DNA of 32,000 nt from Nonlabens ponticola (GTDB taxonomy: Bacteria; Bacteroidota; Bacteroidia; Flavobacteriales; Flavobacteriaceae), in NCBI RefSeq assembly GCF_003966335.1, contig NZ_CP034549.1:240001-272000 (forward strand), given 5' to 3'. Below, one piece after another: positions 317-29,600 of the stretch. The first letter of the stretch is position 1; every line of letters begins with the position of its first letter. A program made the position numbers and the translations under genes. The notes beneath the pieces were generated by a model. That model had not been told where the DNA came from, did no database searches, and was given only the letters and a program-made list of their open reading frames with translations.

Positions 317-330
317 GCTTTCGCGAAAGC
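317..330. repeat. iterated palindrome copy 1, GCTTTCGCGAAAGC (perfect 14-mer), intergenic
   Basis: Read directly from the sequence; it is its own reverse complement. It sits in the divergent intergenic region, 101 nt from the minus-strand ATG (215) and 113 nt upstream of the ATG at 444. The right flank is GTAAC. Confidence 0.95.
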
Positions 331-443
331 GTAACTTTCCTACAAAAATTTAAAAACGAATAACCCGTGATCAAAGTCAATATTACCCTTTAATTAACAT
401 GGCATGTTTGACAAGCGATTTACCTTAAACCAAAAATTTAACC

Positions 444-1808
444 ATGTCCATATTTTCCAAGATTAAAGGAACACTCAACCTGATGAAAAAGGTTGATCTA
501 GATAAACTTGCAGCTCTTAATGAAAAGGTTGATTTGAGTAAAGTGATGGATACCGTAGGCAATCTAGACGATAGACAGCTGGCAGGATTGATGAAGATGT
601 TATCGACCAAAAAGAAAAAGGGACAAAGCAAACTACCTCCTATTGATGGTGATTTTTATGATTTGAGTCTCAAATTGACACCTGAACAACGCGAGGTGCA
701 ACTCAAGGTGCGCAATTTTATGGAAGATGAGGTGCAGCCTATCGCAAATGACTACTGGAATCGTGCTGAGTTCCCACACGATCTAATCCCAAAAATGGCA
801 GAATTAAACATAGCAGGAATTGCTTATCAAGGTTATGGATGTCCAGGAATGGATTTTGTAACTGAAGGCATAATTGCTGAGGAAATTGCGCGTGTTGATG
901 TATCGATAAGCACCTTTTTTGGTGTGCACAGTGGTCTTGCCATGGGATCTATTTATCTATGTGGCAGTGAAGAGCAAAAACAAGAATGGTTACCGCAAAT
1001 GGCACGCATGGAAAAAATTGGTGCTTTTGGCCTGACGGAGCCTGATACAGGAAGCGGCATCGCTGGTGGCATGGACACTACCTGTCGTCGTGATGGTGAC
1101 AACTGGATCTTAAATGGTCAAAAAAAGTGGATAGGCAACGCCACATTTGCGGATGTGATCATAATCTGGGCGCGTGATGAAGAATCCAATCAAGTAAAAG
1201 GATTTATCGTACGCAAGGGTAATCCCAACTTTCACGCAGAGAAAATGGAGGATAAAATGGCCTTGCGTATCGTACAAAACGCTATTATAACCATGACCAA
1301 TTGTGTAGTACCAGAAAGTGATAGACTGCAAGAAGCGCATAACTTTAAAAGCACTGCCGAAGTGCTGCGTATGACGCGCGCTGGCGTGGCGTGGCAGGCC
1401 GTAGGTTGCGCTCGTGGTGCTTATGAGAATGCACTTAAGTACACAAAGAAGCGAGAGCAATTCGGTAGGCCTATTGCCAGTTTCCAGCTGGTACAAAATC
1501 ATCTTGTGGAAATGCTATCAAACCTTACCAGCATGCAAACGCTATGCTTTAGATTATCCGAAATGCAGGATCAAGAAATTTTAAAAGACGAGCACGCATC
1601 ACTCGCTAAGGTTATATGTTCCATGCGTACTCGAGACATCGTGTCCAGAGCACGCGAAGTTATGGGCGGTAATGGTATCCTATTAGAACACAATGTCGCC
1701 CGATTTGTTGCCGATGCTGAAGCCATTTACAGCTATGAAGGAACTAAGGAAATCAATAGCCTTATCGTGGGTCGTGCAATTACTGGTTATAGTGCGTTTG
1801 TGAGTTAG
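444..1808 (+). CDS. acyl-CoA dehydrogenase (glutaryl-CoA dehydrogenase-like)
   Basis: 454-aa ORF with ACAD-family signatures: GAFGLTEPDTGSG, WIGNATFADV, and the C-terminal YEGTKEINSLIVGRAITG. A Lys-rich N-terminal extension of about 65 aa precedes the ACAD fold, so the true start could be internal. Confidence 0.85.
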   Translation: MSIFSKIKGTLNLMKKVDLDKLAALNEKVDLSKVMDTVGNLDDRQLAGLMKMLSTKKKKGQSKLPPIDGDFYDLSLKLTPEQREVQLKVRNFMEDEVQPIANDYWNRAEFPHDLIPKMAELNIAGIAYQGYGCPGMDFVTEGIIAEEIARVDVSISTFFGVHSGLAMGSIYLCGSEEQKQEWLPQMARMEKIGAFGLTEPDTGSGIAGGMDTTCRRDGDNWILNGQKKWIGNATFADVIIIWARDEESNQVKGFIVRKGNPNFHAEKMEDKMALRIVQNAIITMTNCVVPESDRLQEAHNFKSTAEVLRMTRAGVAWQAVGCARGAYENALKYTKKREQFGRPIASFQLVQNHLVEMLSNLTSMQTLCFRLSEMQDQEILKDEHASLAKVICSMRTRDIVSRAREVMGGNGILLEHNVARFVADAEAIYSYEGTKEINSLIVGRAITGYSAFVS

Positions 1809-1850
1809 AGTGTGTAAGTGTTATTGATTATGACATCGTTTATAATCATA

Positions 1851-1880
1851 AAAAGGGGTAGAATTCATTCTGCCCCTTTT
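1851..1880 (+). terminator. rho-independent terminator after the acyl-CoA dehydrogenase gene
   Basis: AAAAGGGGTAGAATTCATTCTGCCCCTTTT has a GC-rich stem (GGGGTAGAA/TTCTGCCCC with one G-U pair) followed by TTTT. It lies 43 nt after the stop. Confidence 0.6.
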
Positions 1881-1970
1881 AATTTGTATCAAATCAATTT
1901 CCTTATTACTAACGTTATGACAATTATGACTTAAGGACGACTTAATCATAAGTGAAGTGACCTAGATAAA

Positions 1971-1997
1971 TCATAGCTTTAAAACAAAAAGCTATGA
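1971..1997 (+). promoter_or_regulatory. 10-bp perfect inverted repeat/hairpin that includes the start codon of the aldehyde dehydrogenase gene
   Basis: TCATAGCTTT (1971-1980) pairs perfectly with AAAGCTATGA (1988-1997), with a 7-nt loop AAAACAA. The ATG at 1994-1996 lies in the 3' arm. Confidence 0.35.
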
Positions 1998-3376: not shown

Positions 3377-3398
3377 ACCTTGTGAATCAAAATTATTA

Positions 3399-3428
3399 GG
3401 GGCAGAATTAATTCTGCTCCTTTTCTTT
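3399..3428. terminator. bidirectional rho-independent terminator between convergent genes
   Basis: GGGGCAGAATTAATTCTGCTCC hairpin followed by TTTTCTTT on the + strand, with AATAATTTT on the - strand. It sits between the stop at 3376 (+) and the stop at 3436 (-). Confidence 0.6.
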
Positions 3429-3435
3429 GTTGTAA

Positions 3436-3774: not shown

Positions 3775-4394
3775 CCGTAGATTTTTATGGAAGTAAAGAT
3801 AGCAATCGCCATGGTTAGCGCTGCCAGCGTGTAATGAATTTTCTTGGCAAAAGTGGCACTGTCAAAACCCCATTTCTTCACATAAATCGCGTACAATGTA
3901 AGCATGGAGAATGTACCAATAGTTGCTCCTGCGATGAATAAATGCGCCATGGGAAATTTGAATTCAAACATTCCACGACCTGCTAGAAAAGAGCTAAAAC
4001 CTATGTAAAAAGGAATAGGAAAAATATTAAGTGCGCTGAGCATCACACCTTGGCCAAATAACTTGTAATCTGATTTATCAACCGGCTTGACTTCTGGACC
4101 GCTGTCTAACCTTGCTCTGATAAAAAAGAATATAGAAAGAGCTACAAAAACGATTACCGCAAACTTCTCTAACGTGGTGGAGACCTCGGGACTTTCACTA
4201 ATTAATCGCGAAAAAAAGACACCAATATAAACTTGAGCGATAACTACAAGAGATGCGCCTGCCGCAAAAATCATGGCCGCACGCCTGCCTTGATTCACGC
4301 TTACCTTAGCTGCTGTGAGATTAAGCAAACCTGGTGGTATTACACCAACGAGCCCGATCCCAATCCCAAAAAGAAGATGCAGCAAGCTACTCAT
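3771..4394 (-). CDS. LysE/RhtB-family amino-acid exporter-like membrane protein
   Basis: 207-aa ORF with about 6 hydrophobic helices. The N-terminal GxxGVIPPGLLNL motif resembles LysE-type translocators. It has 4-nt ATGA overlaps with both neighbours. Confidence 0.55.
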   Translation of the reverse strand: MSSLLHLLFGIGIGLVGVIPPGLLNLTAAKVSVNQGRRAAMIFAAGASLVVIAQVYIGVFFSRLISESPEVSTTLEKFAVIVFVALSIFFFIRARLDSGPEVKPVDKSDYKLFGQGVMLSALNIFPIPFYIGFSSFLAGRGMFEFKFPMAHLFIAGATIGTFSMLTLYAIYVKKWGFDSATFAKKIHYTLAALTMAIAIFTSIKIYG

Positions 4395-5062
4395 GGACGC
4401 AATTTGAACTTCATGTAGGTAATAGCCTTAGATTGTTCAAGATACTGTTTTTCATAAAATGTTTGCGTCTCGACCACATCGCCTGATGCCTCAGTATTAG
4501 TGTAGATATCATGGTGAGCGTACAATATTTCCTCGCCTAATCCTTCTAGTAATCCCAGCGTGTAGCCATGCATGTATTCTGAGTCTGTCTTGAGGTGCAC
4601 GATGCCACCAGGTTTGAGGATCTTGCGGTATTTGTCTAGAAATGATGGGTTGGTCATGCGGTGTTTAGTACGCTTATATTTGATCTGTGGATCTGGAAAA
4701 GTGATCCATATTTCTGATATTTCAGCTTTCGCGAAAGCGTAATCCACCAACTCAATCTGCGTTCTCAAGAAAGCTGCGTTGTCCAGTTCCTGCTCTACTG
4801 CAGTCTTTGCACCACGCCAGAAGCGTGCACCCTTAATATCAATCCCGATAAAATTGCGATCCGGATATTTTTGAGCCAGCGCAACCGTGTACTCGCCTTT
4901 ACCGCAACCCAACTCTAACGTGATGGGCTTATCGTTACCGAAGAACTCATTCCACTTACCGCGATGCTTAAAATCTGCTATGATTTCCTCGCGTGTAGGC
5001 TGTACTACATTTTGAAAAGTCTCATTCTCACGGAATCTCTTCATTTTATTTTTACTTCCCAA
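4391..5062 (-). CDS. trmB: tRNA (guanine46-N7)-methyltransferase
   Basis: 223-aa ORF with the SAM-binding LELGCGKGEY motif, IGIDIKG, and FPDPQ...K..KHR, as in TrmB. Confidence 0.9.
   Translation of the reverse strand: MGSKNKMKRFRENETFQNVVQPTREEIIADFKHRGKWNEFFGNDKPITLELGCGKGEYTVALAQKYPDRNFIGIDIKGARFWRGAKTAVEQELDNAAFLRTQIELVDYAFAKAEISEIWITFPDPQIKYKRTKHRMTNPSFLDKYRKILKPGGIVHLKTDSEYMHGYTLGLLEGLGEEILYAHHDIYTNTEASGDVVETQTFYEKQYLEQSKAITYMKFKLRP
4725..4738. repeat. iterated palindrome copy 2, GCTTTCGCGAAAGC (perfect), inside trmB
   Basis: Read directly from the sequence. On the coding (-) strand it is read TAC GCT TTC GCG AAA GCT = YAFAKA. Confidence 0.95.
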
Positions 5063-5130
5063 AACAATTATTTAATAGTTACTTAATGTGTTGTAAAATA
5101 GGCAGGTTCACAGCCTGACTATCTTTGCGC

Positions 5131-6240: not shown

Positions 6241-7232
6241 ATGCGCTCGTCATGAGCCTCAATGATGTGTTTAACTATTGCCAGACCTAGACCACTGCCG
6301 CCTTCTTTTCTGGATCCTGTGCGATCTACCCTAAAGAAACGCTCAAACAATCGTGGTATGTGAGTCTTATCAATTCCTTCGCCATTGTCGGTAACTCGCA
6401 CGATGACTTTGTTATTGATAAGGTCTTCTATCGCAACCTCAGTCGTGCCGTTTGTTTTACCGTACTTAATAGAATTAACTAGTAGGTTTGCTAATACTTG
6501 CTGGATACGCTCCTCATCAGCGTGAACCATGATAGGTTCTGTATAAACCATGTCAAATAGTAGTGATATCTTCTTTTTGGCAGCTTTCATCTCAAACTGA
6601 TCAAAAACGTGACGCACGAGATCAATGATATCAAAATCGGTTTTATCAAGGTTTAAATCACCCAATTCCAACTTGGTAATCATATCCATGTCATTGACGA
6701 TGTAGGTCAATCGGTCTACTCCTTTTTGCGCACGAGCTAGGTATTTTTTACGGATAGCCTTGTCTTTATGAGCGCCTTCTATTAGTGTGTCGATATATCC
6801 TTGTACCGTAAAAAGTGGTGTCTTGAGCTCGTGAGATATATTTCCTAAAAATTCTTTACGATAGGCCTCTCGCACTTTGAGCGTTTCAATCTCAATCTTT
6901 TTATTACGGGCAAATTCTTCTACCTGCCTGGTGAGTGTGCGCATGTCTGTAGCGATCTCGCGGTCGGCAAAATTGGTGTTCTCCAGCAGCGACACGTCTT
7001 CATAAATCTTCTTGATCCTTCGGTAGATAAACTTTTGCGCACGGTATTGAATGACAAGAAAGCAAATAATAAAAATGATGACCGTACTGATTCCTACAAG
7101 CCACCATGCATCACTCGTTTGAAAGATAAAAGCCACAATAGCTAGAACCATTGCATTGATAAGCGTGATAAACACACTGGAGCGCAAGGCAAAACGGTAG
7201 CTGCGTCTAGGTGCCGTTGTTCTAGATGACAT
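6123..7232 (-). CDS. sensor histidine kinase (two TM helices with a minimal external loop, no obvious sensor domain)
   Basis: H-box FLGNISHELKTPL, N-box LLVNSIKYG, G-boxes VTDNGEGI and GGSGLGLAIVKHI. The N-terminal TM pair is separated by only about 7 residues. It overlaps the response regulator gene by 11 nt. Confidence 0.88.
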   Translation of the reverse strand: MSSRTTAPRRSYRFALRSSVFITLINAMVLAIVAFIFQTSDAWWLVGISTVIIFIICFLVIQYRAQKFIYRRIKKIYEDVSLLENTNFADREIATDMRTLTRQVEEFARNKKIEIETLKVREAYRKEFLGNISHELKTPLFTVQGYIDTLIEGAHKDKAIRKKYLARAQKGVDRLTYIVNDMDMITKLELGDLNLDKTDFDIIDLVRHVFDQFEMKAAKKKISLLFDMVYTEPIMVHADEERIQQVLANLLVNSIKYGKTNGTTEVAIEDLINNKVIVRVTDNGEGIDKTHIPRLFERFFRVDRTGSRKEGGSGLGLAIVKHIIEAHDERIYVDSELGIGSEFSFTLEKVSSSRLDSEIPGSISDPKPA

Positions 7233-7908
7233 ATTTATAGCCTACACCCTTTACGGTCTTGAATTTTTTATCGCCTAGCTTTTCACGCAGTTTACGTATG
7301 TGCACATCGATGGTTCTACCACCTACAACTACCTCATTACCCCAAACTACATCGAGGATTTCCTCGCGCTTAAAAACCTTGCCAGGCTGGCTGGTTAATA
7401 AGGAGAGTAATTCAAATTCCTTTCTAGGCAGTATGAGCTCCTTTTTCTTCCAGAAAATCTTGTATTGATCACGGTCAATGATCAAATCACCTAGATTCTT
7501 GACATTACCACTCTCATCTGTTTCTACCACGTTGCGGCGCAATAGAGATTTCACTTTTGACACGAGCAGTCTTGGTTTTACAGGTTTGGTTATGTAATCA
7601 TCTGCACCAGCATCAAACCCGGCGATCATACTGTAGTCCTCACCACGAGCTGTAAGAAATGTGATGATTGTTTTATCAAGTTCTGGCAATTTGCGCATTT
7701 TTTCACAGGCCTCGATGCCGTCCATAACGGGCATCATGACATCCAATATCACGAGATCTGGAATCTTCTTCTTAGCTTTTTTGACTGCTTCCTCGCCATT
7801 CTCGGCAGTGTACACCTGATAGCCTTCATTTTTAAGATTATAGCTTACGATCTCAAGAATATCTGGCTCGTCATCAACTAATAGGATTTTGGCTTTCTGC
7901 TCTTTCAT
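7222..7908 (-). CDS. OmpR/PhoB-family response regulator
   Basis: Receiver domain (LLVDDEPDI, VILDVMMPVMDG, ITKPV) plus a winged-helix output domain (TIDVHIRKLREKL...VKGVGYK). Confidence 0.92.
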   Translation of the reverse strand: MKEQKAKILLVDDEPDILEIVSYNLKNEGYQVYTAENGEEAVKKAKKKIPDLVILDVMMPVMDGIEACEKMRKLPELDKTIITFLTARGEDYSMIAGFDAGADDYITKPVKPRLLVSKVKSLLRRNVVETDESGNVKNLGDLIIDRDQYKIFWKKKELILPRKEFELLSLLTSQPGKVFKREEILDVVWGNEVVVGGRTIDVHIRKLREKLGDKKFKTVKGVGYKYVI

Positions 7909-8026: not shown

Positions 8027-8040
8027 GCTTTCGCGAAAGC
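8027..8040. repeat. iterated palindrome copy 3, GCTTTCGCGAAAGC (perfect), intergenic
   Basis: Read directly from the sequence. It sits in the divergent intergenic region, 118 nt from the regulator ATG (7908) and 111 nt upstream of the ATG at 8152. Confidence 0.95.
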
Positions 8041-8128
8041 TGACACGTCAAAATGACTGTTGATAAAACGCAATATTATCTTAATATTAAATCGTCCTGC
8101 AAGGCTATTATTCAACGCTTTAAACCAA

Positions 8129-8136
8129 TATATTTG
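8129..8136 (+). promoter_or_regulatory. candidate Bacteroidetes -7 promoter box TATATTTG
   Basis: Matches the TAnnTTTG consensus of Bacteroidetes sigma-A promoters, 15 nt upstream of ATG 8152. No clear -33 TTG was seen. Confidence 0.35.
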
Positions 8137-8151
8137 CACAAAATTCACACA

Positions 8152-9951
8152 ATGAAACAAATTTACTCAATGATTGCCATGTTGCTTTTTACAGCTGTGG
8201 CATTTGCACAACAACCTATTATCACGACCGTCTTGGATGGCGATTGTAGTGGTGGAACGCCTAAAATGATCGAAATCTACGCCAACGGTACGGTAGATTT
8301 TTCTCAGTACACCTTGCAGACTGAAAAAAATACTAACACTGAGTTTGGTGCTGACCTTTCTCTTGCCGATGCTGGAGTGGTAACTGATGGTTTTATCTAT
8401 GTTACAACAACAAACAGTCTTGCCGCTGATGAAGGCGAGACGTCTGCATTTGCATCTGAATTCCCTTCATTGTCTGACGCGATTGTTCTTACAGGCGGTG
8501 CTGCAGATGGTAATGGTGATGACCGTTTTAGAATCATCGACGCACAAATGACCGTAATAGATCAATATGGTGAGAGCGGTGTCAACGGTGATAATGAAAT
8601 TTGGGATTATACTGACTCATATGCTACTCGTATCAACGGTACTGGACCTGATGGTGGATTTAATCCTGGTAACTGGAACTATGCAGGTAGAGCTGCACTT
8701 AATAACTTAGGTGTTTGTCAAGGTCAAGCTGAAACTTTTGAAAGCATCATAGGAACTATAGGCCAATTTTCTACCACTGGTAGCACTGAGCCTAGCCTTT
8801 CTATCCTATCTCCAGCTAATGGCGCTACACTTACTGATGGCGCTCTAGAATCAACGATCTCTGTATCTAACTTTACACTTTCTTCTAGCGCAACTGCTGG
8901 TGATGGTGATGGTTACATCGTTTACCAACTGGACACAGAAGATGCTGTAAACAAATTTGACACAGATCCTATCACCATAAGCGGTATCGCTCCAGGTGAA
9001 CACACGCTAGTTGTGAGACTTGTTGATAATAGCGGTGCAGACGTATCTGAAGCAACAACTCAATCTGTAACTTTTACAGTACCATCACAGCAAGCCATCA
9101 ATAGCATTGCAGACCTGAGAAGCCAAGATGTAGGTGGTGACACTGTCTTTACATTGAATAGTGAGGCGATCGTTACTCGCACAGAAGGTTTTAGAAACCA
9201 GAAGTACATTGAAGACGAGACTGGTGCCATCTTGATTGATGACCCACAAAATGTAATTCCTGACGGTGTATATGAAGAAGGTGATGGTATCACTGGATTG
9301 TCTGGTACGCTAGGTGAATTCCGTGGGTTGCTACAATTTACTCCAACTGAGGATCCAGGTGCGCCATCTTCTAGTGATAATGTAATTACTCCACAAGAAG
9401 TTAGCCTTGCTGAGCTTGCTCAAAATTCTGAAGAATATGAGTCTGAACTCGTTACCATCATTGAAGAGGTAGAGTTTACTGATGCAGATGGTGAACGTAC
9501 TTTTACAAATAATGATAACCTTACAATTTCTGACGGTACAACTAACTTCCTAGTACGCAATTTCTTTGGAGAAGATTTCACTGATGAGGTTGTTCCTGAT
9601 GGATTTGGTTCAATTACAGGTATCGTGAGACAAGACGACAATGTACAAGCTGGTGCCTATGCGATTTCTCCTAGAAACGCAGATGACATCGAGACACTTA
9701 CCTTAAGTAACGGTTCTGTAGAAGCAGGTTTGTTTACTGTCTATCCTAATCCTGCAAATGATGTGTTGAACATTACTGCAGCAAACGGCAACGCGGTAGA
9801 TGTGATTATCTATTCTGCTTTAGGTCAAGAAGTGATCTCGCAAAAAGCAGTTTCTAGCTCTATCAACGTCAATAACTTGAGATCAGGTTTGTATGTAGTT
9901 AAAATTACTCAAGACAATGCTTCACAAACAAGAAAGCTAGTTATCAAGTAA
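8152..9951 (+). CDS. secreted T9SS cargo protein (signal peptide, LTD-like N-domain, Ig-like and OB/DUF5689-like middle, type-A C-terminal sorting domain)
   Basis: The start is placed at MKQIYSMIAMLLFTAVAFAQQ, a signal peptide. The C-terminal ~75 aa (FTVYPNPANDVLNI...LRSGLYVVKITQDNASQTRKLVIK) match the Por/T9SS CTD pattern. The N-terminal IEIYANGTVDFSQYTL resembles lamin-tail-domain proteins. The track start at 8053 adds an unlikely 33-aa leader. Confidence 0.8.
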   Translation: MKQIYSMIAMLLFTAVAFAQQPIITTVLDGDCSGGTPKMIEIYANGTVDFSQYTLQTEKNTNTEFGADLSLADAGVVTDGFIYVTTTNSLAADEGETSAFASEFPSLSDAIVLTGGAADGNGDDRFRIIDAQMTVIDQYGESGVNGDNEIWDYTDSYATRINGTGPDGGFNPGNWNYAGRAALNNLGVCQGQAETFESIIGTIGQFSTTGSTEPSLSILSPANGATLTDGALESTISVSNFTLSSSATAGDGDGYIVYQLDTEDAVNKFDTDPITISGIAPGEHTLVVRLVDNSGADVSEATTQSVTFTVPSQQAINSIADLRSQDVGGDTVFTLNSEAIVTRTEGFRNQKYIEDETGAILIDDPQNVIPDGVYEEGDGITGLSGTLGEFRGLLQFTPTEDPGAPSSSDNVITPQEVSLAELAQNSEEYESELVTIIEEVEFTDADGERTFTNNDNLTISDGTTNFLVRNFFGEDFTDEVVPDGFGSITGIVRQDDNVQAGAYAISPRNADDIETLTLSNGSVEAGLFTVYPNPANDVLNITAANGNAVDVIIYSALGQEVISQKAVSSSINVNNLRSGLYVVKITQDNASQTRKLVIK

Positions 9952-12505: not shown

Positions 12506-12560
12506 TAGGCTTTAGCCGTCTTACCCATTCTTGTCGTCCACGTTTGTGTATTTTTACTGC

Positions 12561-13562
12561 ATGATTCTAGTCACAGGAGCCACTGGTATGGTAGGCGGCC
12601 ATTTATTGTACCGCTTTCGCGAAAGCGCAACCCAAATCAAAGCGATCTACAGGAATCCAGCATCTATAGATAAAACACGCACCATCTTTAATTCTTATCG
12701 CAAGGGTGATGCAGCGCTGGTTGATAATTTTAAGTGGGTTCCTGGCGATTTACTGGACTTGCCTAGCCTGGAAGATGCGATGGAAGGTATTGATCAAGTT
12801 TATCATTGTGCGGCTATATTGGGCGATGCTAGTTTTGACAAGATGAAACAGGTAAACGTGACTGGCACAAAGTATCTTGTGGATATCGCGATTGCTCGTG
12901 GCATCTCTAAATTTTGCTATGTAAGTAGCATTGCTACTCTTGCTAATCCTGTTGCAGGTAAGTCCATTACCGAAGATGATTTTTTCAATCCAGATGCACT
13001 TAATACAGATTATGCTATATCAAAGTATGGCGGTGAGATGGAAGTATGGCGTGCCTCTCAAGAAGATCTTGATGTGGTAATCGTCAATCCTGGAGTGATA
13101 TTAGGAGAAGGTGATTATAACAATGGTAGTGGCAAATTATGGAGCGCAAGTGCAGCGACACAGCCTTTTTACACGAGTGGCAGCAGTGGTTTTGTAGATG
13201 TGAGAGATGTTGCGGAGATTATGCAGCTATTGATGAATAGCGATATTAAAAATGAACGATTCACGCTGGTGGCAGATAATGTTGAATTCAAGAAAATACT
13301 AGAAAACATATCCATCGCCATCCATAGTAAAAAGCCATCCATCTTACTTACCAAATGGATGTTGTACACAGCTTGGATTCTAGGTAAGATTCCTAGCTGG
13401 TTAGGGATCATGAAAGGCCTTTCTAGAGCTGAAATAATAACCTACACATCCAACTCTAAGTACGATAATGAAAAGGTAGAAGAACAGCTATCCTATAAGT
13501 TTACTGCTTTAAAAAATAGTATTGAACGAGTTTCAAGTCATTTTCTTGAGAACAAAGAGTAA
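12561..13562 (+). CDS. NAD-dependent epimerase/dehydratase (extended SDR)
   Basis: The start is placed at MILVTGATGMVGGHL (Rossmann GxxGxxG). The catalytic YxxxK is present as YAISK. The track start (TTG 12531) adds 10 unlikely residues. Confidence 0.8.
   Translation: MILVTGATGMVGGHLLYRFRESATQIKAIYRNPASIDKTRTIFNSYRKGDAALVDNFKWVPGDLLDLPSLEDAMEGIDQVYHCAAILGDASFDKMKQVNVTGTKYLVDIAIARGISKFCYVSSIATLANPVAGKSITEDDFFNPDALNTDYAISKYGGEMEVWRASQEDLDVVIVNPGVILGEGDYNNGSGKLWSASAATQPFYTSGSSGFVDVRDVAEIMQLLMNSDIKNERFTLVADNVEFKKILENISIAIHSKKPSILLTKWMLYTAWILGKIPSWLGIMKGLSRAEIITYTSNSKYDNEKVEEQLSYKFTALKNSIERVSSHFLENKE
12613..12626. repeat. iterated palindrome copy 4, GCTTTCGCGAAAGC (perfect), inside the epimerase gene
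   Basis: Read directly from the sequence. In the gene frame it is read CGC TTT CGC GAA AGC = RFRES. Confidence 0.95.
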
Positions 13563-17554: not shown

Positions 17555-17568
17555 TCTTTCGCGAAAGC
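17555..17568. repeat. iterated palindrome copy 5, TCTTTCGCGAAAGC (perfect 12-mer core 17556-17567), intergenic
   Basis: Read directly from the sequence. It lies 18 nt after the hemD stop and 25 nt before the bidirectional terminator. The flanks TTAC...GTAA extend the symmetry. Confidence 0.9.
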
Positions 17569-17642: not shown

Positions 17643-19250
17643 TTATTTGAGTGGGCCGCCGTTGATGATTTCATCACTTGCCTGTGATTCAAATTTCTTG
17701 AAATTCTCACGGAAAAACGTTGTCAGCTTTGCCGCCGTCTCATAATAACCAGTATCATTATTCCACGATTTTCTTGGACTCAACACCTCGGTAGGTACAT
17801 TAGGACAAGTACGTGGTTGTGCCAGTCCAAACATTGAGTGTACATGGTAGTTATCCTTGTTAGCCGCTTCAAGGGAACCATCAAGCGCTGCAGCAATCAT
17901 CGCGCGAGTGTATTTAAGTTTCATACGGTGACCAACACCATATGGGCCGCCAGTCCAGCCTGTGTTTACTAACCATACTGTCACATCATTCTCCTTCATT
18001 TTCTCGCTCAACATCTCAGCATACTTAGTAGGATGCAGTGGCATAAATGGTGCTCCAAAACATGCTGAAAAACTAGGAACCGGCTCATTAACGCCAGCCT
18101 CGGTACCAGCGACCTTGGCTGTATAACCACTTATAAAATGGTAGGCGGCTTGACCTGGAGTTAATTTTGAAATAGGAGGCAATACACCAAAGGCATCTGC
18201 CGTCAAGAAAAATATATTCTTGGGATTCTTGCCTATACTAGGTTGTCTAATATTATCGATATGGTGAATCGGGTAACTGACTCTTGTGTTTTGAGTGATG
18301 CTGGTATCAGCAAAATCAACTTTACCATCATCTTTTAACTTGACGTTTTCTAATATCGCGCCTGGTTTGATGGCATTGAAAATTTCTGGCTCGTGCTCCT
18401 GGCTTAGATTAATAACCTTTGCATAACAACCTCCTTCAAAATTGAATACCTCGTTAGTTGAAGTCCAGCCGTGTTCATCATCACCTATCAATTCCCGATC
18501 AGGATCAGTTGATAGTGTTGTTTTACCGGTACCACTCAAACCAAAGAAGATAGCGGTGTTGCCGTCCTTACCAACGTTTGCACTGCAATGCATAGGCAAG
18601 GTATTTTTCTCAGTTGGTAAAATGAAATTGAGCGCGCTAAAAATTCCTTTCTTGATCTCGCCCGTGTAACCTGTACCACCTATTAGGGCAATCTTATCAG
18701 TAAAATTGAGAATGGCAAAATTATGCTGGCGAGTGCGATCCCTTACAGGATCTGCCATGAAACCTGGTGCATTGATAACCGTCCACTCTGGAGAGAAGTT
18801 CTCTAATTGTTGATCGTCTGGTCTTAAAAACATATTATAAGCAAACATGTTTGACCATGGATACTCATTAATAACTCTCAAATTGAGCTTGTAATCCTCG
18901 TGCGCACATGCATAAGCATCACGAACAAATATTTCCTTGCCATCGAGGTATTCAATCACTCGTTTATGAAGATTGTCAAAGTCTTTCTTGTTAAAAGGCA
19001 AGTTGATATTTCCCCACCAAATATGATCTTGAGTAAGGTTATCCTTGACAATGAATCGATCCATAGGTGATCGACCTGTAAACTCTCCAGTATTAACCGC
19101 GAGCGTGCCATTGGCAGTTTCTTTACCGTTGTAGGAATCTACGGTAATTTGCTGCAACGCATCAGGTGATAATTGATAATTAATTTTTGATTTAGTAATC
19201 CCGTATTTTTCCAACGAAATCGATTGCGTACTTAAGGCGTGTGAACCCAT
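17643..19250 (-). CDS. pckA: phosphoenolpyruvate carboxykinase (ATP)
   Basis: 535-aa ORF with kinase-1a GLSGTGKTTLS, plus GGTGYTGEIKKG and LIGDDEHGW motifs. Confidence 0.95.
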   Translation of the reverse strand: MGSHALSTQSISLEKYGITKSKINYQLSPDALQQITVDSYNGKETANGTLAVNTGEFTGRSPMDRFIVKDNLTQDHIWWGNINLPFNKKDFDNLHKRVIEYLDGKEIFVRDAYACAHEDYKLNLRVINEYPWSNMFAYNMFLRPDDQQLENFSPEWTVINAPGFMADPVRDRTRQHNFAILNFTDKIALIGGTGYTGEIKKGIFSALNFILPTEKNTLPMHCSANVGKDGNTAIFFGLSGTGKTTLSTDPDRELIGDDEHGWTSTNEVFNFEGGCYAKVINLSQEHEPEIFNAIKPGAILENVKLKDDGKVDFADTSITQNTRVSYPIHHIDNIRQPSIGKNPKNIFFLTADAFGVLPPISKLTPGQAAYHFISGYTAKVAGTEAGVNEPVPSFSACFGAPFMPLHPTKYAEMLSEKMKENDVTVWLVNTGWTGGPYGVGHRMKLKYTRAMIAAALDGSLEAANKDNYHVHSMFGLAQPRTCPNVPTEVLSPRKSWNNDTGYYETAAKLTTFFRENFKKFESQASDEIINGGPLK

Positions 19251-19755: not shown

Positions 19756-21120
19756 ATGCGACACATTTTGATAATAGGTGCTGGAAAATCAACAGGAGTA
19801 CTGGTAGATTATTTGGTTAGCAAATCGGTTGAGTATGATCTACATCTTACCATTGCTGATAAACAACTGTCCAGCGCACAAAACCTAGCAGGAAACAACG
19901 AGCGCACCACAGCCATTGAACTTGACATCTTCAAACCAGAACCGCGTCGCAGGCAGGTAAAAGAAGCAGATATAGTTATATCAATGCTACCAGCTCGATA
20001 CCATATAGAGGTTGCCCGTGATTGTATTGAGTTTGAAAAAAACATGGTGACTGCTAGCTATGTAAGTAAAGAGATGCAAGAACTGGATCAACAGGCACGA
20101 GATAACAATCTCATATTTATGAATGAGATAGGTGTTGATCCAGGCATTGATCACATGAGCGCCATGCAAGTCATTGATCGCATTAGGGATCAAGGTGGTC
20201 GCATGCTATTGTTTGAATCTTTCACTGGTGGATTAGTCGCACCACAGGATGACAATAATTTGTGGAATTACAAATTCACGTGGAATCCACGCAACGTCGT
20301 GACTGCTGGTCAAGGTGGTGCGGCAAAGTTTATTCAAGAAGGTAAGTACAAGTACATACCTTATCACAGGCTATTCCGTCGTACGGAGTTTCTTGATGTT
20401 GAAGGTTATGGTAGGTTTGAGGCCTATGCTAATAGGAACAGTCTCAAATACCGTGAAGTCTACGGCCTAGAAGATATTGAGACCCTTTATCGCGGTACCA
20501 TGCGTCGAGTAGGTTACAGCAAGGCTTGGAATATGTTTGTGCAGCTAGGAATGACTGATGACACATACACGATGGATGGATCAGACCAGATGAGCTACAG
20601 GGATTTCATCAATAGCTTTTTACCGTACTCGCCTACTGACAGTGTGGAGCTGAAGCTAAGGCATGAATTGCGTATCGATCAGGATGATATCATGTGGGAA
20701 AAATTACTTGAACTAGATATTTTTAATCCTAATAAAATCGTTGGTATTACAGATGCGACACCAGCTCAAATACTTCAAAAAATTCTAGAAGATAAATGGA
20801 CGCTTCAGTCAAGAGAAAAAGACATGATCGTGATGTATCACAAGTTTGGTTATGAGATTAACGGACAAACACATCAAATAGACAGTACCATGGTTTGCAA
20901 AGGTGATGGTAATCGACAAACGGCAATGGCAAAAACAGTAGGCCTACCGGTAGCTATAGCAGCTCTTAGAATTCTTAACGGCGAGATTAAAGAATACGGT
21001 GTACAAATACCTATAAAATCAAGTATCTATAAACCTATTCTTGAAGAACTAGAAGAATATGGGATACGCTTCCGCGAAAGCGAAACTAAATATCTAGGCT
21101 ACAACGATCTCAATCTTTAA
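19756..21120 (+). CDS. saccharopine dehydrogenase family oxidoreductase
   Basis: 454-aa ORF with an N-terminal Rossmann motif IIGAGKSTG. The motifs NEIGVDPGIDHM and FTWNPRNVV are typical of saccharopine dehydrogenase/reductase. Confidence 0.85.
   Translation: MRHILIIGAGKSTGVLVDYLVSKSVEYDLHLTIADKQLSSAQNLAGNNERTTAIELDIFKPEPRRRQVKEADIVISMLPARYHIEVARDCIEFEKNMVTASYVSKEMQELDQQARDNNLIFMNEIGVDPGIDHMSAMQVIDRIRDQGGRMLLFESFTGGLVAPQDDNNLWNYKFTWNPRNVVTAGQGGAAKFIQEGKYKYIPYHRLFRRTEFLDVEGYGRFEAYANRNSLKYREVYGLEDIETLYRGTMRRVGYSKAWNMFVQLGMTDDTYTMDGSDQMSYRDFINSFLPYSPTDSVELKLRHELRIDQDDIMWEKLLELDIFNPNKIVGITDATPAQILQKILEDKWTLQSREKDMIVMYHKFGYEINGQTHQIDSTMVCKGDGNRQTAMAKTVGLPVAIAALRILNGEIKEYGVQIPIKSSIYKPILEELEEYGIRFRESETKYLGYNDLNL
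21068..21081. repeat. iterated palindrome copy 6, GCTTCCGCGAAAGC (one mismatch at 21072), inside the saccharopine dehydrogenase gene
   Basis: Read directly from the sequence. In the gene frame it is read CGC TTC CGC GAA AGC = RFRES, 36 nt before the stop codon. Confidence 0.8.
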
Positions 21121-21884: not shown

Positions 21885-23981
21885 TTATCGATCAAAGCTC
21901 CAGTTCATGATATCAGTCCTTAGACCAATGTTGAACCACGTAGTAGTTGCCTGCTGCACCTGTGCATTGTCCACTTGCGGATTCATATCACGATAAATAA
22001 ATTGACCATAGATTTTGAGGTTGCTCGCTGGATTTATCAAATAACCAGCCTCTAGCCTACCGTACATGATTGAAGCTGTATTTCCTTGTGCTAGCTCATT
22101 ACCATCGTCGGCGATTCTATCATCTTCGGTACGGTAGATATTACCACCGTAATAAGCATTATCGCCGCCTTGTAAAAAATCATAGCCGCGCTCACCATAT
22201 ATAAATTGACCGATGCCATACCAGCGATCTAGTGTGTATCGACCTATGAGCATCGCTTCATAAAAATTAGCACCCCAAGGATGTGCTAGTGCTTGATTGG
22301 TATTACCATAATTAAGCACAATGGTATTGTGGCTATAGGTATATGGACGCACTCGATTATATTCTGCCTGCAGGAATAGGTTGGGAATATTAAAGGCATT
22401 TTGATATTTTACACCTAGCTGGTAACCACTCTTATTCTGGTAGCTACCTTCACCACGTATTACAGATCCTGTGGCGAGCTCGTCTAGTACCAGTTGACCA
22501 TAACCTGTTACCCAATCACTGAATTTATATTTGGCAGTAGCGCCAATAAGTGCATTACCGCCACGAGATCCTGTCTCAAGTTCTACCGTTTGATAAAAAA
22601 TAACTGGATTAAGGTAGTTAAAGTCAAAGCCGCGACCGTTGTCGTCCTGCCACAAGACACTCTCAAAAACGCCCAGGGTCAATCTTTTGGTCGCGTTCCA
22701 GCTCAAGTAATGGTGCGTCATATACTTTGTTCTAAAGCTATCGTCTGCGGTGACTTCTGGTCGTACATCGCGCAAGGAAGTGTAAAGCACCGTGTAATCA
22801 ATTTTCCAGAACTTGGCATTTACTTTAAAATACGGGAACGGTTGTGAGTTATCACTTAGCACCAATGATCTGTATCCATCGCCTATAAAATGTTGTCCAT
22901 GACCCAATTGTAGATTAAAATATTTACTGGGTTTGTAGTTTATATAACCGGTGGCAACTGGGTAGTCATAAATGTTCTCACCGCCATCTTCTGCAATGCC
23001 GCGACCTGGCACTACGCCTGGATTACCACCATCGGGCGCCCTGCGAGTGATTTCTCTATTAAAGTACTGTGCAAATCGCCCTTGAGACTCTTGGATGGTA
23101 GCTCCAAAAGTTAGCTGTGAGCCCACGCCACCATTTAAATATACCAATCGAGTATTATTGAAGGTAGTCACGCCTTCACCACCGTCACGACCCAATTGCA
23201 AATCGACACCAGGATCTAGAACAAACCAATAATCCTTGCCGGCTACTTCAAAAAAATGCTCATTCCATAGCTTTTTTCCTAGCCAGCTATCTGACTCTTT
23301 GAGTAGGCTCTCACGCTCTGACTCAAGGTCAAAGTAATCGCTTACATATTCAAATGTATAAGGTTTCACCGCTGTGTGAGCATTGTTTCCCACCTTGTTC
23401 ATCGCTGCTTCATATCGATGGTATCTTTGGTAGGACATCGGGATCAACGCGTTAGAACGCAATTCTTGACCGTCATATTGATCTGATTGTATAGAGGTGT
23501 ATTCATTGTTAGCTTTCGCGAAAGCTAACTCATCACCATCATCCTGCACTCTAGTAATTTTATCATTATCCTCTATCCTGCTGAACGAGCCCGCAGCCGT
23601 CATAGGAACCTGCATGTTGACGGCAAATTGCATATAAGTGGGCTCACCGTTGTAGCTGGGTGGCGTGATAGCCGGTAAATTACCCATGGCATTTTCCAGC
23701 GCCGTCTTAACCTGTGCGTCGCGTGCGTCGATCAAAATAACATCAAAATCACCCTCACGATTCACCTCAAATCGTACGCTAGCATTTTGTTGACCCACAA
23801 CATTATTGGGATGCTGGTAGGCTTTTGATAAGGTTTGATAGAATTGCTTGTAGAAACAGTCTTCTAAAGATTCTCCAGTACGATTCTCGCAATCAGGAAA
23901 TATCGGGTAGCTCTCAATGGTTGATTGTGCATAGGTCGTTGTCGCGATGAACATGCAAAACACTAAAGCCTTAAAATTCAT
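21885..23981 (-). CDS. predicted outer-membrane protein with N-terminal TonB-C-like Cys-pair domain (RemB-like)
   Basis: 698-aa ORF with signal peptide MNFKALVFCMFIATTTYAQS. Residues ~20-130 share the YPxFPxC...C...F.V pattern of the two neighbouring TonB-like C-termini. The remainder is rich in alternating aromatic/Gly beta-strand-like segments. As far as I recall, F. johnsoniae remB (Fjoh_1657) lies four genes from sprA (Fjoh_1653), which fits this position. Confidence 0.55.
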   Translation of the reverse strand: MNFKALVFCMFIATTTYAQSTIESYPIFPDCENRTGESLEDCFYKQFYQTLSKAYQHPNNVVGQQNASVRFEVNREGDFDVILIDARDAQVKTALENAMGNLPAITPPSYNGEPTYMQFAVNMQVPMTAAGSFSRIEDNDKITRVQDDGDELAFAKANNEYTSIQSDQYDGQELRSNALIPMSYQRYHRYEAAMNKVGNNAHTAVKPYTFEYVSDYFDLESERESLLKESDSWLGKKLWNEHFFEVAGKDYWFVLDPGVDLQLGRDGGEGVTTFNNTRLVYLNGGVGSQLTFGATIQESQGRFAQYFNREITRRAPDGGNPGVVPGRGIAEDGGENIYDYPVATGYINYKPSKYFNLQLGHGQHFIGDGYRSLVLSDNSQPFPYFKVNAKFWKIDYTVLYTSLRDVRPEVTADDSFRTKYMTHHYLSWNATKRLTLGVFESVLWQDDNGRGFDFNYLNPVIFYQTVELETGSRGGNALIGATAKYKFSDWVTGYGQLVLDELATGSVIRGEGSYQNKSGYQLGVKYQNAFNIPNLFLQAEYNRVRPYTYSHNTIVLNYGNTNQALAHPWGANFYEAMLIGRYTLDRWYGIGQFIYGERGYDFLQGGDNAYYGGNIYRTEDDRIADDGNELAQGNTASIMYGRLEAGYLINPASNLKIYGQFIYRDMNPQVDNAQVQQATTTWFNIGLRTDIMNWSFDR
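23508..23529. repeat. iterated palindrome copy 7, extended to a perfect 22-bp palindrome GTTAGCTTTCGCGAAAGCTAAC, inside the RemB-like gene
   Basis: Read directly from the sequence; the 14-mer core is at 23512-23525. On the coding (-) strand it is read TTA GCT TTC GCG AAA GCT AAC = LAFAKAN. Confidence 0.95.
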
Positions 23982-24874: not shown

Positions 24875-24908
24875 AACTAATGGTTTTAAGATTATTAAAA
24901 CCAAGTCA

Positions 24909-24916: not shown

Positions 24917-24923
24917 ATACCAT

Positions 24924-24954
24924 AAAAAAATCCTGATCTTTCAATCAGGATTTT
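24924..24954 (-). terminator. rho-independent terminator after the first TonB-like gene
   Basis: AAAATCCTGAT-CTTTCA-ATCAGGATTTT forms a perfect 11-bp stem. On the - strand it is followed by a run of T (7 A at 24924-24930 on the + strand). Confidence 0.7.
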
Positions 24955-24976
24955 AAAATATTGCGAAAACTATAAT

Positions 24977-25705: not shown

Positions 25706-25769
25706 GAGTAGTGTATTAAGTAGTGCTAAAAATATATAAATAGCGCTTGATAAAAAAGCACCGCATTGA

Positions 25770-26183: not shown

Positions 26184-26185
26184 GA

Positions 26186-26563
26186 TTACCCTACTAGCTC
26201 CTTGTAAGCCGCTGCGTCCATAAGGCCAGCAATTTGTGCCGTATCACTCATGGTCATCTTGATCATCCAGCCCATACCGTAAGGATCAGTATTCACCAGC
26301 TCAGGCTCATCTTCTAGCTCATCATTAAACTCAGTAATGGTTCCTGATAATGGTAAAAACAAATCAGATACTGTTTTAACAGCCTCAACGGTCCCAAAAA
26401 CTTCTTCTTGATCTAGAGTTTCGTCCAGCGTTTCTACCTCGACATATACGATGTCGCCTAGTTCACCTTGAGCAAAATCTGTGATACCTACAATTGCGGT
26501 ATCGCCTTCAATCTTAATCCACTCGTGATCTTTGGTATATTTTAATTCTGCTGGAATGTTCAT
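26186..26563 (-). CDS. gcvH: glycine cleavage system protein H
   Basis: 125-aa ORF with the lipoyl-lysine motif VEAVKTVSD and the N-terminal YTKDHEWI, typical of GcvH. Confidence 0.95.
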
Positions 26564-26581
26564 AGTGTTGATTTATGCTCG

Positions 26582-26589
26582 CAAATTTA
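26582..26589 (-). promoter_or_regulatory. candidate -7 promoter box TAAATTTG for gcvH
   Basis: The reverse complement of CAAATTTA matches TAnnTTTG, 18 nt upstream of the gcvH ATG, in the 60-bp gap after sprA. Confidence 0.35.
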
Positions 26590-26623
26590 ATTAACTATTG
26601 CGATTTGTAAGAAGCTAATTAAG

Positions 26624-29600
26624 TTAATTACCAAACGTATATCGCAACCTTATACCACTGCGTATAGTAGTTTGCGGGAAGGCTGTTGAGATCGCAAATT
26701 CAGAGAATGAATGGTCATAATAGAATATCGCTGTAAAGGCGCGGCTCAAGGCATATTCTGCAGTGAACTTTGCTCCATAAATAGTTTGTCCTGCAGTTGC
26801 CTGACTGTTCTCCAGATCTAAATATCTTATAATGGTTATGTTGTCTCTTATCGAGCCATCAAGTCTTAAATTAAGGTCACTCTTGATAACTTGACTACGA
26901 CCACCGATTTTTGTTTTGAACGGTACATCCTTGATGCGGTAACCTACACCTAAAATTAATTGGTTACTATTGATCTCAGTCAATAGATTGTTGTCAAAAC
27001 TCAATGAAATGGCGCGATCCCGTCTTAGCTCTGCGGCGATGGACATAGAATTCCTCATCTCAAAGTCCACTTTTAATAAAGGTGAGAATGACTCTACTAG
27101 ATTAACGTTAAAGAACAAATCTTCTGGCTTGAAATCACCATTTTGATTCAATGCTTGCTGATTTTGATCCTCATAAGCCAGACCACCGTTACCAGGCGAG
27201 AAATCAAGATTAGTCTGGAATCTATTGATCGTATATCCTGCTTGATATCCATGCTGTAAGGAGAAACGTTTGAATCGTTTCTTGAACCATTTAAGGTTCA
27301 TCAAGCCTGTGTACTTAATTTGCCAGTTAGGTAGAGGAATGTCACGCAATGCGTCGGTATCTTGATCATCTGCATCACGACCTTCATAAGCCGATAAGAA
27401 TGATGGTAACAGTACCTTTTGACTATTGCGACTAAAGCCCAATGGGAAACCTTGATCGTCCCGACCAAAATTATCATTGCCGTAAAACTCACGCGCCAAA
27501 CGATTTGCTACATCAATCCTATTCTCTCTAAACTGATTAAACGTCGTTGAATTATCGATGCTGTTATTACCAAAGGATGTACCTATCATGATGGTAGAAA
27601 TCTGGAAATTTCCAGAGGTCTGTGGCGTTAGTGATTGATAGGTTAGATCATCTGGATCTACCCGATAGTTCTCTTGGAAAAACTCTGTGTATTGTCGGTT
27701 TGCATTAAGATCAATCTTCAAATCTGGTAGCAGGTCAACATTAAATGTCAAGCCTAGTGTCCTGGATTCAGTCTCAGTATATTGCTCGTTGAAATCCTCA
27801 TAGAGCGTCAACCAGCCATTGCGAGCTGCTAGGTCTCGCACCTCTGCCTGGCTACCAAAGGTAAAACCGGTGGTAGGCTTGAGTGTCCCTATAAATCCTA
27901 CATCAGGCAAATAACCTGGTAAGAATATACCGTTTGCCTCTTCATAGTTAATGGTAGCACGCTTGACTGCGGTTAGTATCCCTACAAAGGTATTGTACGT
28001 TTTGTTAGCAAAATTCTCTTTAGGAATCTCTGGAACTTTAGCCTCTTCGCCTTCTTTACCTTCGGCGTCATCTTTTTTAGTAGGTAAGGTGTTTCTGGAT
28101 CTTCCTCGTTGTTTTTGCTGCTTCTTTTGGAGCTCTCTTCTAGCCTCGGCACCAAATTTCTTTTTCTCGAGACCTACATATGTGTAGAGTTTGCCCAGAT
28201 CCAACGTTCCGTTCCAGCGATGTGAATTATTATTGGATACGCTATTCCCTAGATTTGGGATGCCATCTAGTTGAGCAAATTGTTGTGAGTTACGCTGCCA
28301 TAAAAAGTCTGCAGTGTATGTGTAGGTAGCTTTCGCGAAAGCTAAAAAAGGAATCTTATCAAGAGGCAGCTGATACGTCGCGGCCAGGCGCTGAGTGTGT
28401 CGATCGGGTATACCTTCATCAAAAAAGTTGGTAAACAACGTATAATCCTCATCAATAGAGCCGTCATCGTCGTTAATGTAACTGCGCACCACACGATTGT
28501 TATTTGCAGCAAAGTTTATATTGAGTGAATTGGTCAAATCCCAATTGACTGCATATTGATTAGCTAAGGTGAAATTGCGATTTGTCAGCGGGTCAATCGC
28601 GATATTTTGCGCATCAGGAATACCATCACCGTTTAAATCTACTGGATTAGTATCCAGCTGTAAATCACGGAATGTCTGTGTGTTAAATTGACGTATGACG
28701 GAAGCACCAGCCGTAAAATTGTTAGGAAGCAGGTTGACGTTGAAATCCCTGACAAACTTGAGATAATCGCCGGCAAGCGTTGTGTCTGCATTCTTGAATG
28801 GCTCAACTACCAACTCTGGAAAAGCATAGTTATAGGTCGTATTGACATTTACCGATTGTGCCTTGAATTCTTCTATCTCAAAGTCTCGCTGATCGGTCTG
28901 ATTATACGAACCTGAGAAGACAAAATTCTCAATATCATAAGGCATAGGTTTCTTATCTCCAGTGCGCTGTTTAGTCACTCCTATAAGGTTGACGCTTTGT
29001 CTTCTGGTGTATTCTTCTGATTGTTCTTCGATGGCATCGCGCTCTTCATCGCTTTGAGCATTTGCTAATCTCGTGTCCAATTCAATATCCTCAAATTGTG
29101 GATCAAATTGCGGTGTTACCGTTTCTTCACCTATGCTATAAGAAAATGGAACTCTAAGACCCCATTTTTCTGGGAACAGCATTCCTAAGCTCATACTAGT
29201 GGTCACGTCATATTGCGTAACATTCTCACGATTGCGCTCGTTAGGGCCTTGCTCAATACTACCAAAACCTATGGTGCTTCTTCTACCAGTGGCGCTGACG
29301 GTTGCAAAGTCTGCCATGTTTGCATCCATGTTTAGAATAGCTGCGTATCCACCTTCATTTTTCAATCCTGATAACCTCAACTCATTGTACCAAACTTCAC
29401 CACATAAATCTTCTTTTTTTGAATTGCGTATTCCCAACATCACCGTACGCACATCACCAAAATTAGGATTACCCTTGATCCCGTAAATCTGCTGGTTAGG
29501 TCTGTTTGCTGCTGACTCATCAAGTTCAATCTCATTGAAGAAATTTTCTTCACTAGGATTGAGTGTGGGATCTCCTAGCACTCTCGACTTAATTTCTTGA

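Follow-up and report, generated by a model that had tools for sequence, protein, structure and literature searches.

Why does one short palindrome recur every few kilobases along a bacterial chromosome, both within unrelated housekeeping genes and in the spacers between genes? The question is raised by a stretch of 32,000 nucleotides of the chromosome of Nonlabens ponticola (NZ_CP034549.1, positions 240,001 to 272,000; the whole of this stretch is referred to below as the window), in which the 14-base perfect palindrome GCTTTCGCGAAAGC is present in six perfect copies and two copies with one mismatch. Beyond these eight copies, no further match to GCTTTCGCGAAAGC at two mismatches or fewer is found in the window. 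Dinucleotide-preserving shuffles of the window contain 0.15 +/- 0.41 matches at the same threshold, and none of 100 shuffles reaches eight. The enrichment is genome-wide in a clade that comprises Nonlabens, a genus of marine flavobacteria, and a sister lineage, and it is both old and lineage-specific. The phenomenon is real and well supported, and the function discussed for it here is a proposal.

Copies of the palindrome in the window

The eight copies, with positions counted from the first nucleotide of the window, are located as follows.

317..330: perfect copy; in a spacer, 113 bp upstream of the gene (444-1808) for acyl-CoA dehydrogenase
4725..4738: perfect copy; within trmB (4391-5062, minus strand), translated as AFAKA
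8027..8040: perfect copy; in the spacer that separates the divergent genes of a response regulator (7222-7908, minus strand) and a type IX secretion system (T9SS)-tail protein (8053-9951, plus strand)
12613..12626: perfect copy; within the gene of an SDR/NAD-dependent epimerase (12531-13562, plus strand), translated as RFRES
17555..17568: one-mismatch copy, TCTTTCGCGAAAGC; in the spacer where the HemD-like gene (16796-17536) and the PEPCK gene (17643-19250) converge
21068..21081: one-mismatch copy, GCTTCCGCGAAAGC; close to the 3' end of the gene (19756-21120, plus strand) for saccharopine dehydrogenase, translated as RFRES
23512..23525: perfect copy; within remB (21885-23981, minus strand), read as AFAKA in an indel-rich hypervariable loop
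28329..28342: perfect copy; within sprA (open reading frame (ORF) 26624-31900, minus strand; the gene extends past the window), read as AFAKA

All of these positions had been given in the original prediction, made from the letters of the window, and all eight are confirmed, with perfect copies beginning at 317, 4725, 8027, 12613, 23512, and 28329. The prediction was also right that the copy at 17555 keeps the 12-mer core, that the copy at 21068 has one internal mismatch, and that three copies are intergenic and five genic. Its estimate of approximately 40% G+C agrees with measured values of 39-44%. The gene names that it proposed hold for TrmB, the SDR epimerase, and RemB, and those of saccharopine dehydrogenase and SprA are borne out through Pfam in syntenic loci. 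Within the genes of the window the motif is translated either as AFAKA (trmB, remB, and sprA) or as RFRES (SDR epimerase and saccharopine dehydrogenase). No run of T follows the copy at 17555, and its hairpin is weak as judged by folding energies.

Two further features of these sites may be mentioned. Only 12 bp separate the end of the copy at 8027 from the ATG (8053) predicted for the T9SS-tail protein, and this copy may overlap promoter or ribosome-binding-site sequence; its placement upstream of the response regulator is kept in four species. The N. ponticola RemB deposited at NCBI (EJ995_01105) has 505 residues, while ORF 21885-23981 (minus strand) encodes 698 residues and aligns over its full length with the orthologues of other Nonlabens (694-704 residues), so that the annotated start is probably placed too far downstream.

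Distribution in related and unrelated genomes

Approximately 20 kb around trmB were compared in Nonlabens sp. Hel1_33_55, N. marinus, and N. ulvanivorans, and approximately 22 kb around remB were compared in N. spongiae and in the sister lineage, which is represented by an ENA metagenome contig (58% RemB identity, 44% G+C). These five further loci, of 20-22 kb each, carry four to five perfect copies apiece, together with one one-mismatch copy in each of the three trmB loci and one two-mismatch copy in each of the two remB loci. The density of the motif in the four other Nonlabens species and the sister lineage is one per 3.5-5.5 kb, often at orthologous sites. By extrapolation, a whole genome would contain approximately 700 copies.

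A metagenome scan with the 18-mer TCGCTTTCGCGAAAGCGA returned at least 120 stretches (782 kb), 113 of the 120 having 32-47% G+C. A few of these are orthologous to the window at an identity typical of Nonlabens, whereas the remainder show no orthology to the window and therefore originate from other regions of the genome. Of the copies in the 120 stretches listed, 209 are perfect, 18 have one mismatch, and 10 have two. When all 885 kb of related DNA are pooled, 230 perfect copies are observed (120 of them selected by the search itself, and at least 110 unselected), as compared with 0.0005-0.003 expected from Markov models of orders 0-5 with the motif masked. The lower orders were used because the expectation of maximal order, which the original prediction had proposed, is uninformative for this motif, the sub-words of which occur almost exclusively inside it.

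A genome scan based on PEPCK, a highly conserved query that yielded no Nonlabens among the matches listed (best identity 77%), served as a negative control. In the 1.39 Mb around the PEPCK genes of 80 other genomes, among the matches listed, the 12-mer core is found zero times, and TTTCGCGAAA occurs once. Mangrovimonas, Bizionia, Gilvibacter, Maribacter, Polaribacter, Muriicola, and Aureitalea are represented in this outgroup, along with other Bacteroidota. No record was found in exact look-ups of the PEPCK protein of the window, nor in look-ups of RemB from Hel1_33_55, N. marinus, and Aureitalea marina.

The original prediction had considered that the repetition might be restricted to the window, and this is contradicted by finding it in six clade genomes as well as in 113 independent metagenomic stretches. 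Both the excess over a Markov expectation and the lineage specificity, for which it had suggested counts, are found. It recognised no described function for the motif. Among the papers searched, we found no description of the 14-mer or of the 12-mer core and no link of Nonlabens or Bacteroidetes to an iterated palindrome.

The iterated unit and its flanks

The wider consensus of the motif is the 22-base palindrome TTTCGCTTTCGCGAAAGCGAAA. In other species the dyad continues into the flanks, forming TCGCTTTCGCGAAAGCGA and, less strongly, TTTCGCTTTCGCGAAAGCGAAA, and the sequence outside of it is A/T-rich. The earlier statement that the sequence is not conserved beyond approximately 4 nt of flank is therefore to be modified: a weak palindromic extension to TTTC-core-GAAA is present throughout the clade, while flank conservation of the kind found in mobile elements is indeed missing. 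In N. ponticola, positions +/-8 and +/-9 are relaxed, and the C...G flank is present in only one of the six perfect copies, which looks like a "dialect" of this species.

Shorter parts of the motif behave differently from the whole. Within the window, neither half-site (GCTTTCG or CGAAAGC) is found anywhere but in the copies. Outside the motif, TCGCGA is found 114 times as compared with 111 expected from background frequency, and CGCG is mildly depleted (observed/expected 0.80). The octamer GCGAAAGC forms the 3' half of the motif on both strands in every copy (e.g., 323-330 in the window). The enriched unit is thus the full dyad of 14-22 bp, and neither the half-sites nor the TCGCGA core nor the GCGAAAGC octamer is enriched alone. 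A recognition site of a restriction-modification system was rejected on the basis of the same counts for TCGCGA and CGCG and of the length of the enriched unit.

Approximately 60% of the 230 perfect copies lie in long open frames, where they are read in all three frames, most often as AFAKA (71 copies), xFRES (41), and LSRK (27). The other 40% or so are non-coding. Since the coding density of bacterial genomes is typically close to 90%, non-coding copies are in excess.

Spacing of the copies

The seven gaps between the copies in the window measure 2.4-4.9 kb, with a coefficient of variation of 0.22. Compared with uniformly placed points, both this coefficient and the largest empty stretch have p ~0.0004, and the remaining loci show the same trend toward even spacing. 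For a hazard analysis, 113 low-G+C metagenomic stretches were pooled with four genome loci, the ends of the loci being treated as censoring. A random process would give a flat rate at which the next copy is met, while the observed rate rises with the distance from a copy as follows.

Less than 250 bp: 0 per kb
250-500 bp: 0.017 per kb
0.5-1 kb: 0.057 per kb
1-1.5 kb: 0.10 per kb
1.5-2 kb: 0.22 per kb
2-3 kb: 0.32 per kb
3-4 kb: 0.44 per kb
4-5 kb: 0.36 per kb
5-6 kb: 0.71 per kb
6-8 kb: 0.79 per kb

Below 500 bp, a single event is observed where roughly 23 would be expected (a rough estimate). The regularity is estimated conservatively, because the mixing of genomes of unequal density would bias the result toward clustering. 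The copies are thus regularly spaced at roughly one per 3-4 kb, with neighbours avoided below approximately 1 kb and long gaps rarer than by chance.

Origin and persistence of the copies

Comparison of orthologous sites reveals how the copies come into being. In the alignment of TrmB proteins, no indel is seen at the copy of the motif; where Nonlabens has AFAKA, other genera have AFGKN, AFAEN, or IFAES. The DNA of this copy is identical in Hel1_33_55 and N. marinus, while N. ulvanivorans has a sequence with four mismatches in its place, the motif being absent. Copies also occur at corresponding positions in spacers with flanks that can no longer be aligned: upstream of the acyl-CoA dehydrogenase gene, a copy is present in Hel1_33_55 (with one mismatch) and in N. 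marinus (perfect), and three other Nonlabens species have a perfect one upstream of the response regulator. Point substitution at tolerant positions of the protein or the spacer, and not insertion, gives rise to the copies.

Across five species, the codon alignment of the SDR gene has 10% of its third positions invariant, yet all 14 bases of the motif, including five third positions, are invariant, and the motif is the sole invariant run of at least 14 nt in the gene. N. spongiae and the sister lineage share the copy in sprA without change, and a codon alignment of 7.2 kb contains only one other invariant run of 14 nt. In RemB, AFAKA is kept in 11 of 11 Nonlabens sequences while the neighbouring residues are unconserved, and the sister lineage has RHAVN. 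The site in saccharopine dehydrogenase, mismatched in the window, is perfect in N. spongiae and the sister lineage, and the copy at 21068 is therefore decaying; T>C at the position of its mismatch is the commonest single mismatch. Selection on the DNA sequence itself, or a conversion-like drive, holds the copies constant, with some gain and loss. The spectrum of one-mismatch copies was checked for the deamination of CpG that would be a sign of 5-methylcytosine, and no excess was found in it (CpG transitions, 4/24).

Phages and restriction sites

The virulent Nonlabens phage P12024S (JQ823122), the whole genome of which (35.7 kb) was searched, contains no copy of the motif at two mismatches or fewer, where approximately nine would be expected at the density of the host. 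This phage strongly avoids GGCC (0 sites vs 35 expected), CCGG (2 vs 34), and CGCG (9 vs 44), and in host DNA, too, no palindromic 4-mer is depleted more than these three, at 0.78-0.80 of expectation. These depletions suggest that the hosts probably carry restriction-modification systems for GGCC, CCGG, and CGCG, and, if so, the CGCG centre of the motif may be methylated. The link to methylation or restriction, which the original prediction held to be conceivable, is an indirect one. The phage also encodes a DNA methyltransferase of its own (P12024S_51).

Four viral contigs, IMGVR_UViG_2617271332_000001 (L053), L089, L114, and L117, differ from P12024S in carrying two to three copies each at a host-like spacing of 3-6.5 kb. 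They encode portal, head protease, major head (capsid), and tape-measure proteins, and may represent prophages or temperate phages of the clade. The other results of the scan of viral contigs with the 14-mer were, among the matches listed, mostly single chance matches in unrelated phages of high G+C content.

Possible functions of the palindrome

The explanation that we favour, to which we assign a probability of roughly 40%, is that the motif serves as a clade-specific self tag that would be read on duplex DNA by a dimeric protein and would act in the uptake of transforming DNA, in its recombination, or in both. A protein with dyad symmetry, i.e., a dimer, would read the motif on double-stranded DNA, and during natural transformation DNA fragments with the motif would be favoured in binding, uptake, or recombination. 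Recombination biased by uptake would then spread and restore the copies in a form of molecular drive, and the same process would favour one copy per interval of the size of a fragment. The central CGCG would possibly be methylated. The measurable properties of the motif all match those published for uptake sequences, which originate by point mutation, are spaced significantly evenly, and lie in ORFs in 35-65% of cases, with perfect forms exceeding one-mismatch forms, a core accompanied by weaker A/T-rich flanks, and a restriction to clades, with dialects (PMC1939737). They match those of HIP1, the only comparable palindrome, as well. Natural competence is documented within Flavobacteriales, where Riemerella columbina shows a preference for its own DNA, no uptake sequence having been identified as yet (PMC7965970).

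A more specific version, by which Nonlabens and the sister lineage would employ a methylatable palindrome of 14-22 bp as a self tag for uptake or recombination, with a dimeric receptor, in a way that arose independently of the highly iterated palindrome HIP1 of cyanobacteria but resembles what is now proposed for it, is tentative and somewhat unlikely to be correct in all its parts. If it were true, the motif would be the first sequence of the uptake type in Bacteroidota and the first proven palindromic one, and other Flavobacteriaceae may have tags of their own, such as TTCTTCGGAA in Aureitalea sp. L0-47.

Several points weigh against a self tag in DNA exchange. We know of no report of competence in Nonlabens, the window contains no candidate for a receptor or binding protein of the motif, and proven uptake sequences, unlike the motif, are not palindromic. 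Regular spacing and conservation would be equally expected of a site of chromosome architecture. The presence of the motif on contigs with phage structural genes is not predicted by an uptake model, unless these elements are long-term residents. In addition, the sampling of the chromosome covers approximately 50 kb of orthologous DNA per genome and selected metagenomic stretches rather than any whole genome, and these stretches are partly redundant, which makes the p-values approximate.

The main rival explanation, which we regard as unlikely, is that the copies are sites of a clade-specific dimeric protein that organises the chromosome (nucleoid-associated, loop-anchoring, or ParB/Noc-like), one site per few kilobases being kept by selection to give structure to the nucleoid. 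A long perfect dyad is typical of dimeric DNA-binding proteins, and the regular spacing with repulsion and gap filling fits such a role. Xu et al. argued the same for HIP1 on the strength of its conservation and periodicity (PMC5861425), and Karlin, as cited in PMC1939737, understood the even spacing of uptake sequences in this manner. Families of binding sites are usually degenerate, however, while here perfect copies exceed one-mismatch copies by approximately 5-10 to 1, and no candidate protein was found. Hundreds of exact sites of 14-22 bp are used by no architectural protein of which we are aware, and known sites such as parS, NBS, matS, and SBS number from 4 to approximately 100 and are clustered in one region of the chromosome. 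The differing content of the two kinds of phage DNA could also be accommodated by a symmetric mark akin to Chi, which would label DNA as self and protect it from a host nuclease or recombination enzyme or redirect such an enzyme: P12024S has no copy, whereas the contigs with structural genes carry the motif as the host does. The density of the motif is of the same order as that of Chi in Escherichia coli, and a Chi-like component has been suggested for HIP1 by Kamoku and Nielsen (bioRxiv 10.1101/2024.09.10.611283). Nevertheless, Chi is asymmetric and co-oriented with replication, a palindrome provides no polarity, and this idea is quite improbable. Similarly low odds are given to a function in single-stranded DNA, in which GCGAAAGC would fold on either strand into a mini-hairpin for priming, for blocking of exonucleases, or for protein loading. 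The 3' half of the motif is exactly identical to the extraordinarily stable d(GCGAAAGC) mini-hairpin, which melts at 76.5 C (above 82 C in the case of GCGAAAGCT), resists exonucleases, excludes single-stranded DNA-binding protein, and is found at the phage G4 origin, at the start site of primase (PMC13037366); an overlapped palindrome would place the octamer compactly on each strand. What is iterated, however, is the full dyad. Free GCGAAAGC is not enriched, with 51 occurrences in 885 kb (most of them explained by decayed copies) vs 50 in the 1.39 Mb from outgroups, the other way of overlapping it, GCGAAAGCTTTCGC, has 0 occurrences, and the extended consensus is dyad-symmetric about its centre, as fits recognition of a duplex. 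Standard folding energies are unremarkable, although such parameters miss the mini-hairpin.

The core of the motif contains CGCG and TCGCGA, the former being avoided by P12024S and belonging to the three most depleted palindromic 4-mers of the host, and the copies might on these grounds be a neutral, functionless by-product of biased repair or methylation acting on either sequence, in the manner of very-short-patch repair. Such an origin is very improbable. A bias of 4-6 bp cannot specify 14-22 bp, and away from the motif TCGCGA is as frequent as expected, while CGCG is mildly depleted rather than enriched. Regular spacing requires interaction between sites, the one-mismatch spectrum is without an excess of CpG transitions, and P12024S is without a copy despite replicating in these hosts. 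The least probable of the explanations considered would make the copies MITE, REP, or REPIN units (miniature mobile elements), transcription terminators, or motifs acting at the level of RNA, in spite of the fact that the motif is a repeated palindrome with some copies, such as that at 17555, between convergent genes. The original prediction had already excluded insertion sequences (IS), MITE, and REP elements, and its judgement is upheld by the absence of an indel in trmB, by flanks that are unrelated and cannot be aligned, by the lack of target duplications, and by the location of most copies, 60% of them inside ORFs, at one per 3-4 kb without relation to operon structure. An intrinsic terminator was rejected, as the hairpin of the 14-mer (-2.1 kcal/mol) is no better than that of shuffles, no run of T follows it, and most copies are inside genes. 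A known RNA family was rejected as well, Rfam having no match in the window, and so was the operator of a transcription-factor regulon, as the copies lie in the middle of unrelated housekeeping genes and their spacing is independent of operons.

Other iterated sequences and wider meaning

Another repeated sequence was noted in the family. The non-palindromic 10-mer TTCTTCGGAA (in fuller form TTTCTTCGGAAG) occurs six times in a 21.6-kb locus of Aureitalea sp. L0-47 (L130; NZ_JAFMTQ010000001.1:260281-281855), at positions 4521, 4605, 12572, 15613, 20416, and 20992, where shuffles predict 0.03. Elsewhere it is present in nine copies in 1.5 Mb of other loci, with near-copies in a Psychroserpens locus (L134). 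It may be a second lineage-specific iterated motif of Flavobacteriaceae, with a density like that of the Nonlabens palindrome. Arrays of short period (spacings of approximately 51 bp, 74-94 bp, and 180 bp) were seen in three loci of the outgroup, from uncultured Flavobacteriales/Bacteroidia (L131, 1-900; L177, 11570-11920; L178, 4900-6500). They are unrelated to the palindrome and may be tandem repeats or CRISPR-like arrays.

Hyper-abundant short motifs that are kept by selection are known in very few lineages, namely the uptake signal sequence (USS), the DNA uptake sequence (DUS), HIP1, Chi, and the FtsK-orienting polar sequences (KOPS). The one palindromic case among them is HIP1, the function of which has been disputed for thirty years and has been tied to transformation only recently. 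The palindrome of Nonlabens offers an independent second system for deciding between exchange tags and architectural sites, and an exact motif of 14-22 bp can be used as bait for finding the protein that reads it. Placed in constructs, possibly in methylated form, the motif might ease the transformation of marine Flavobacteriia. It is a sharp marker for taxonomy and binning of the clade in metagenomes, and could help to separate long-resident DNA from DNA that is recently acquired or viral.

Comparison with known systems

The analogues named in the original prediction, i.e., HIP1, uptake sequences, and sites of dimeric proteins, are supported as the nearest ones, although to different degrees. 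With regard to parS (TGTTTCACGTGAAACA) and NBS (ATTTCCCGGGAAAT), the resemblance that it saw lies in the TTTC...GAAA arms: these sites, like the motif, are palindromes of approximately 14-16 bp that are read by dimers. The likeness is otherwise superficial, as the centre and outer bases, the copy number, and the distribution all differ. Sites of the ParB/Noc type are present in 4 to approximately 70 copies, clustered near or away from particular regions of the chromosome, and identity with parS or NBS was rejected, the sequence being different and the motif recurring at one per 3-4 kb throughout the regions sampled.

USS of Pasteurellaceae and DUS of Neisseriaceae share with the motif their restriction to a clade, a number of exact copies in the hundreds or more, and a location partly in ORFs, in all frames. 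They also share the origin by point mutation at tolerant sites, the excess of perfect over one-mismatch forms, weak A/T-rich flanks, even spacing, and dialects. They differ in being asymmetric 9-12-mers, DUS being read by a minor pilin, whereas the motif is a palindrome of lower density.

HIP1 (GCGATCGC) is, like the motif, a hugely over-represented perfect palindrome of genes and spacers that spreads by substitution, is conserved at orthologous sites beyond the needs of codons (PMC5861425), and is spaced non-randomly. In both cases the flanking bases vary between lineages, and the centre, a likely target of methylation in HIP1, may be one in the motif as well. HIP1 is maintained by selection (PMC5861425), it raises natural transformation in a way that depends on methylation (bioRxiv 10.1101/2024.09.10.611283), and it has been proposed as the uptake sequence of cyanobacteria (bioRxiv 10.64898/2026.06.24.733823). 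It is, however, cyanobacterial, of another sequence, and 8-10 bp in length as compared with 14-22 bp, which makes the motif HIP-like but not HIP1. Its density reaches one per 350 bp vs approximately one per 3-4 kb for the motif, and its periodicity is 10-90 kb, while the motif shows repulsion and gap filling on the scale of kilobases. Cognate methyltransferases are known for HIP1 and are putative for the motif. The palindrome of Nonlabens thus belongs to a known kind of feature, the hyper-abundant short motif kept by selection, and what is new in it is the phylum, the longer palindromic sequence, the lower density, and the clear regularity on the kilobase scale.

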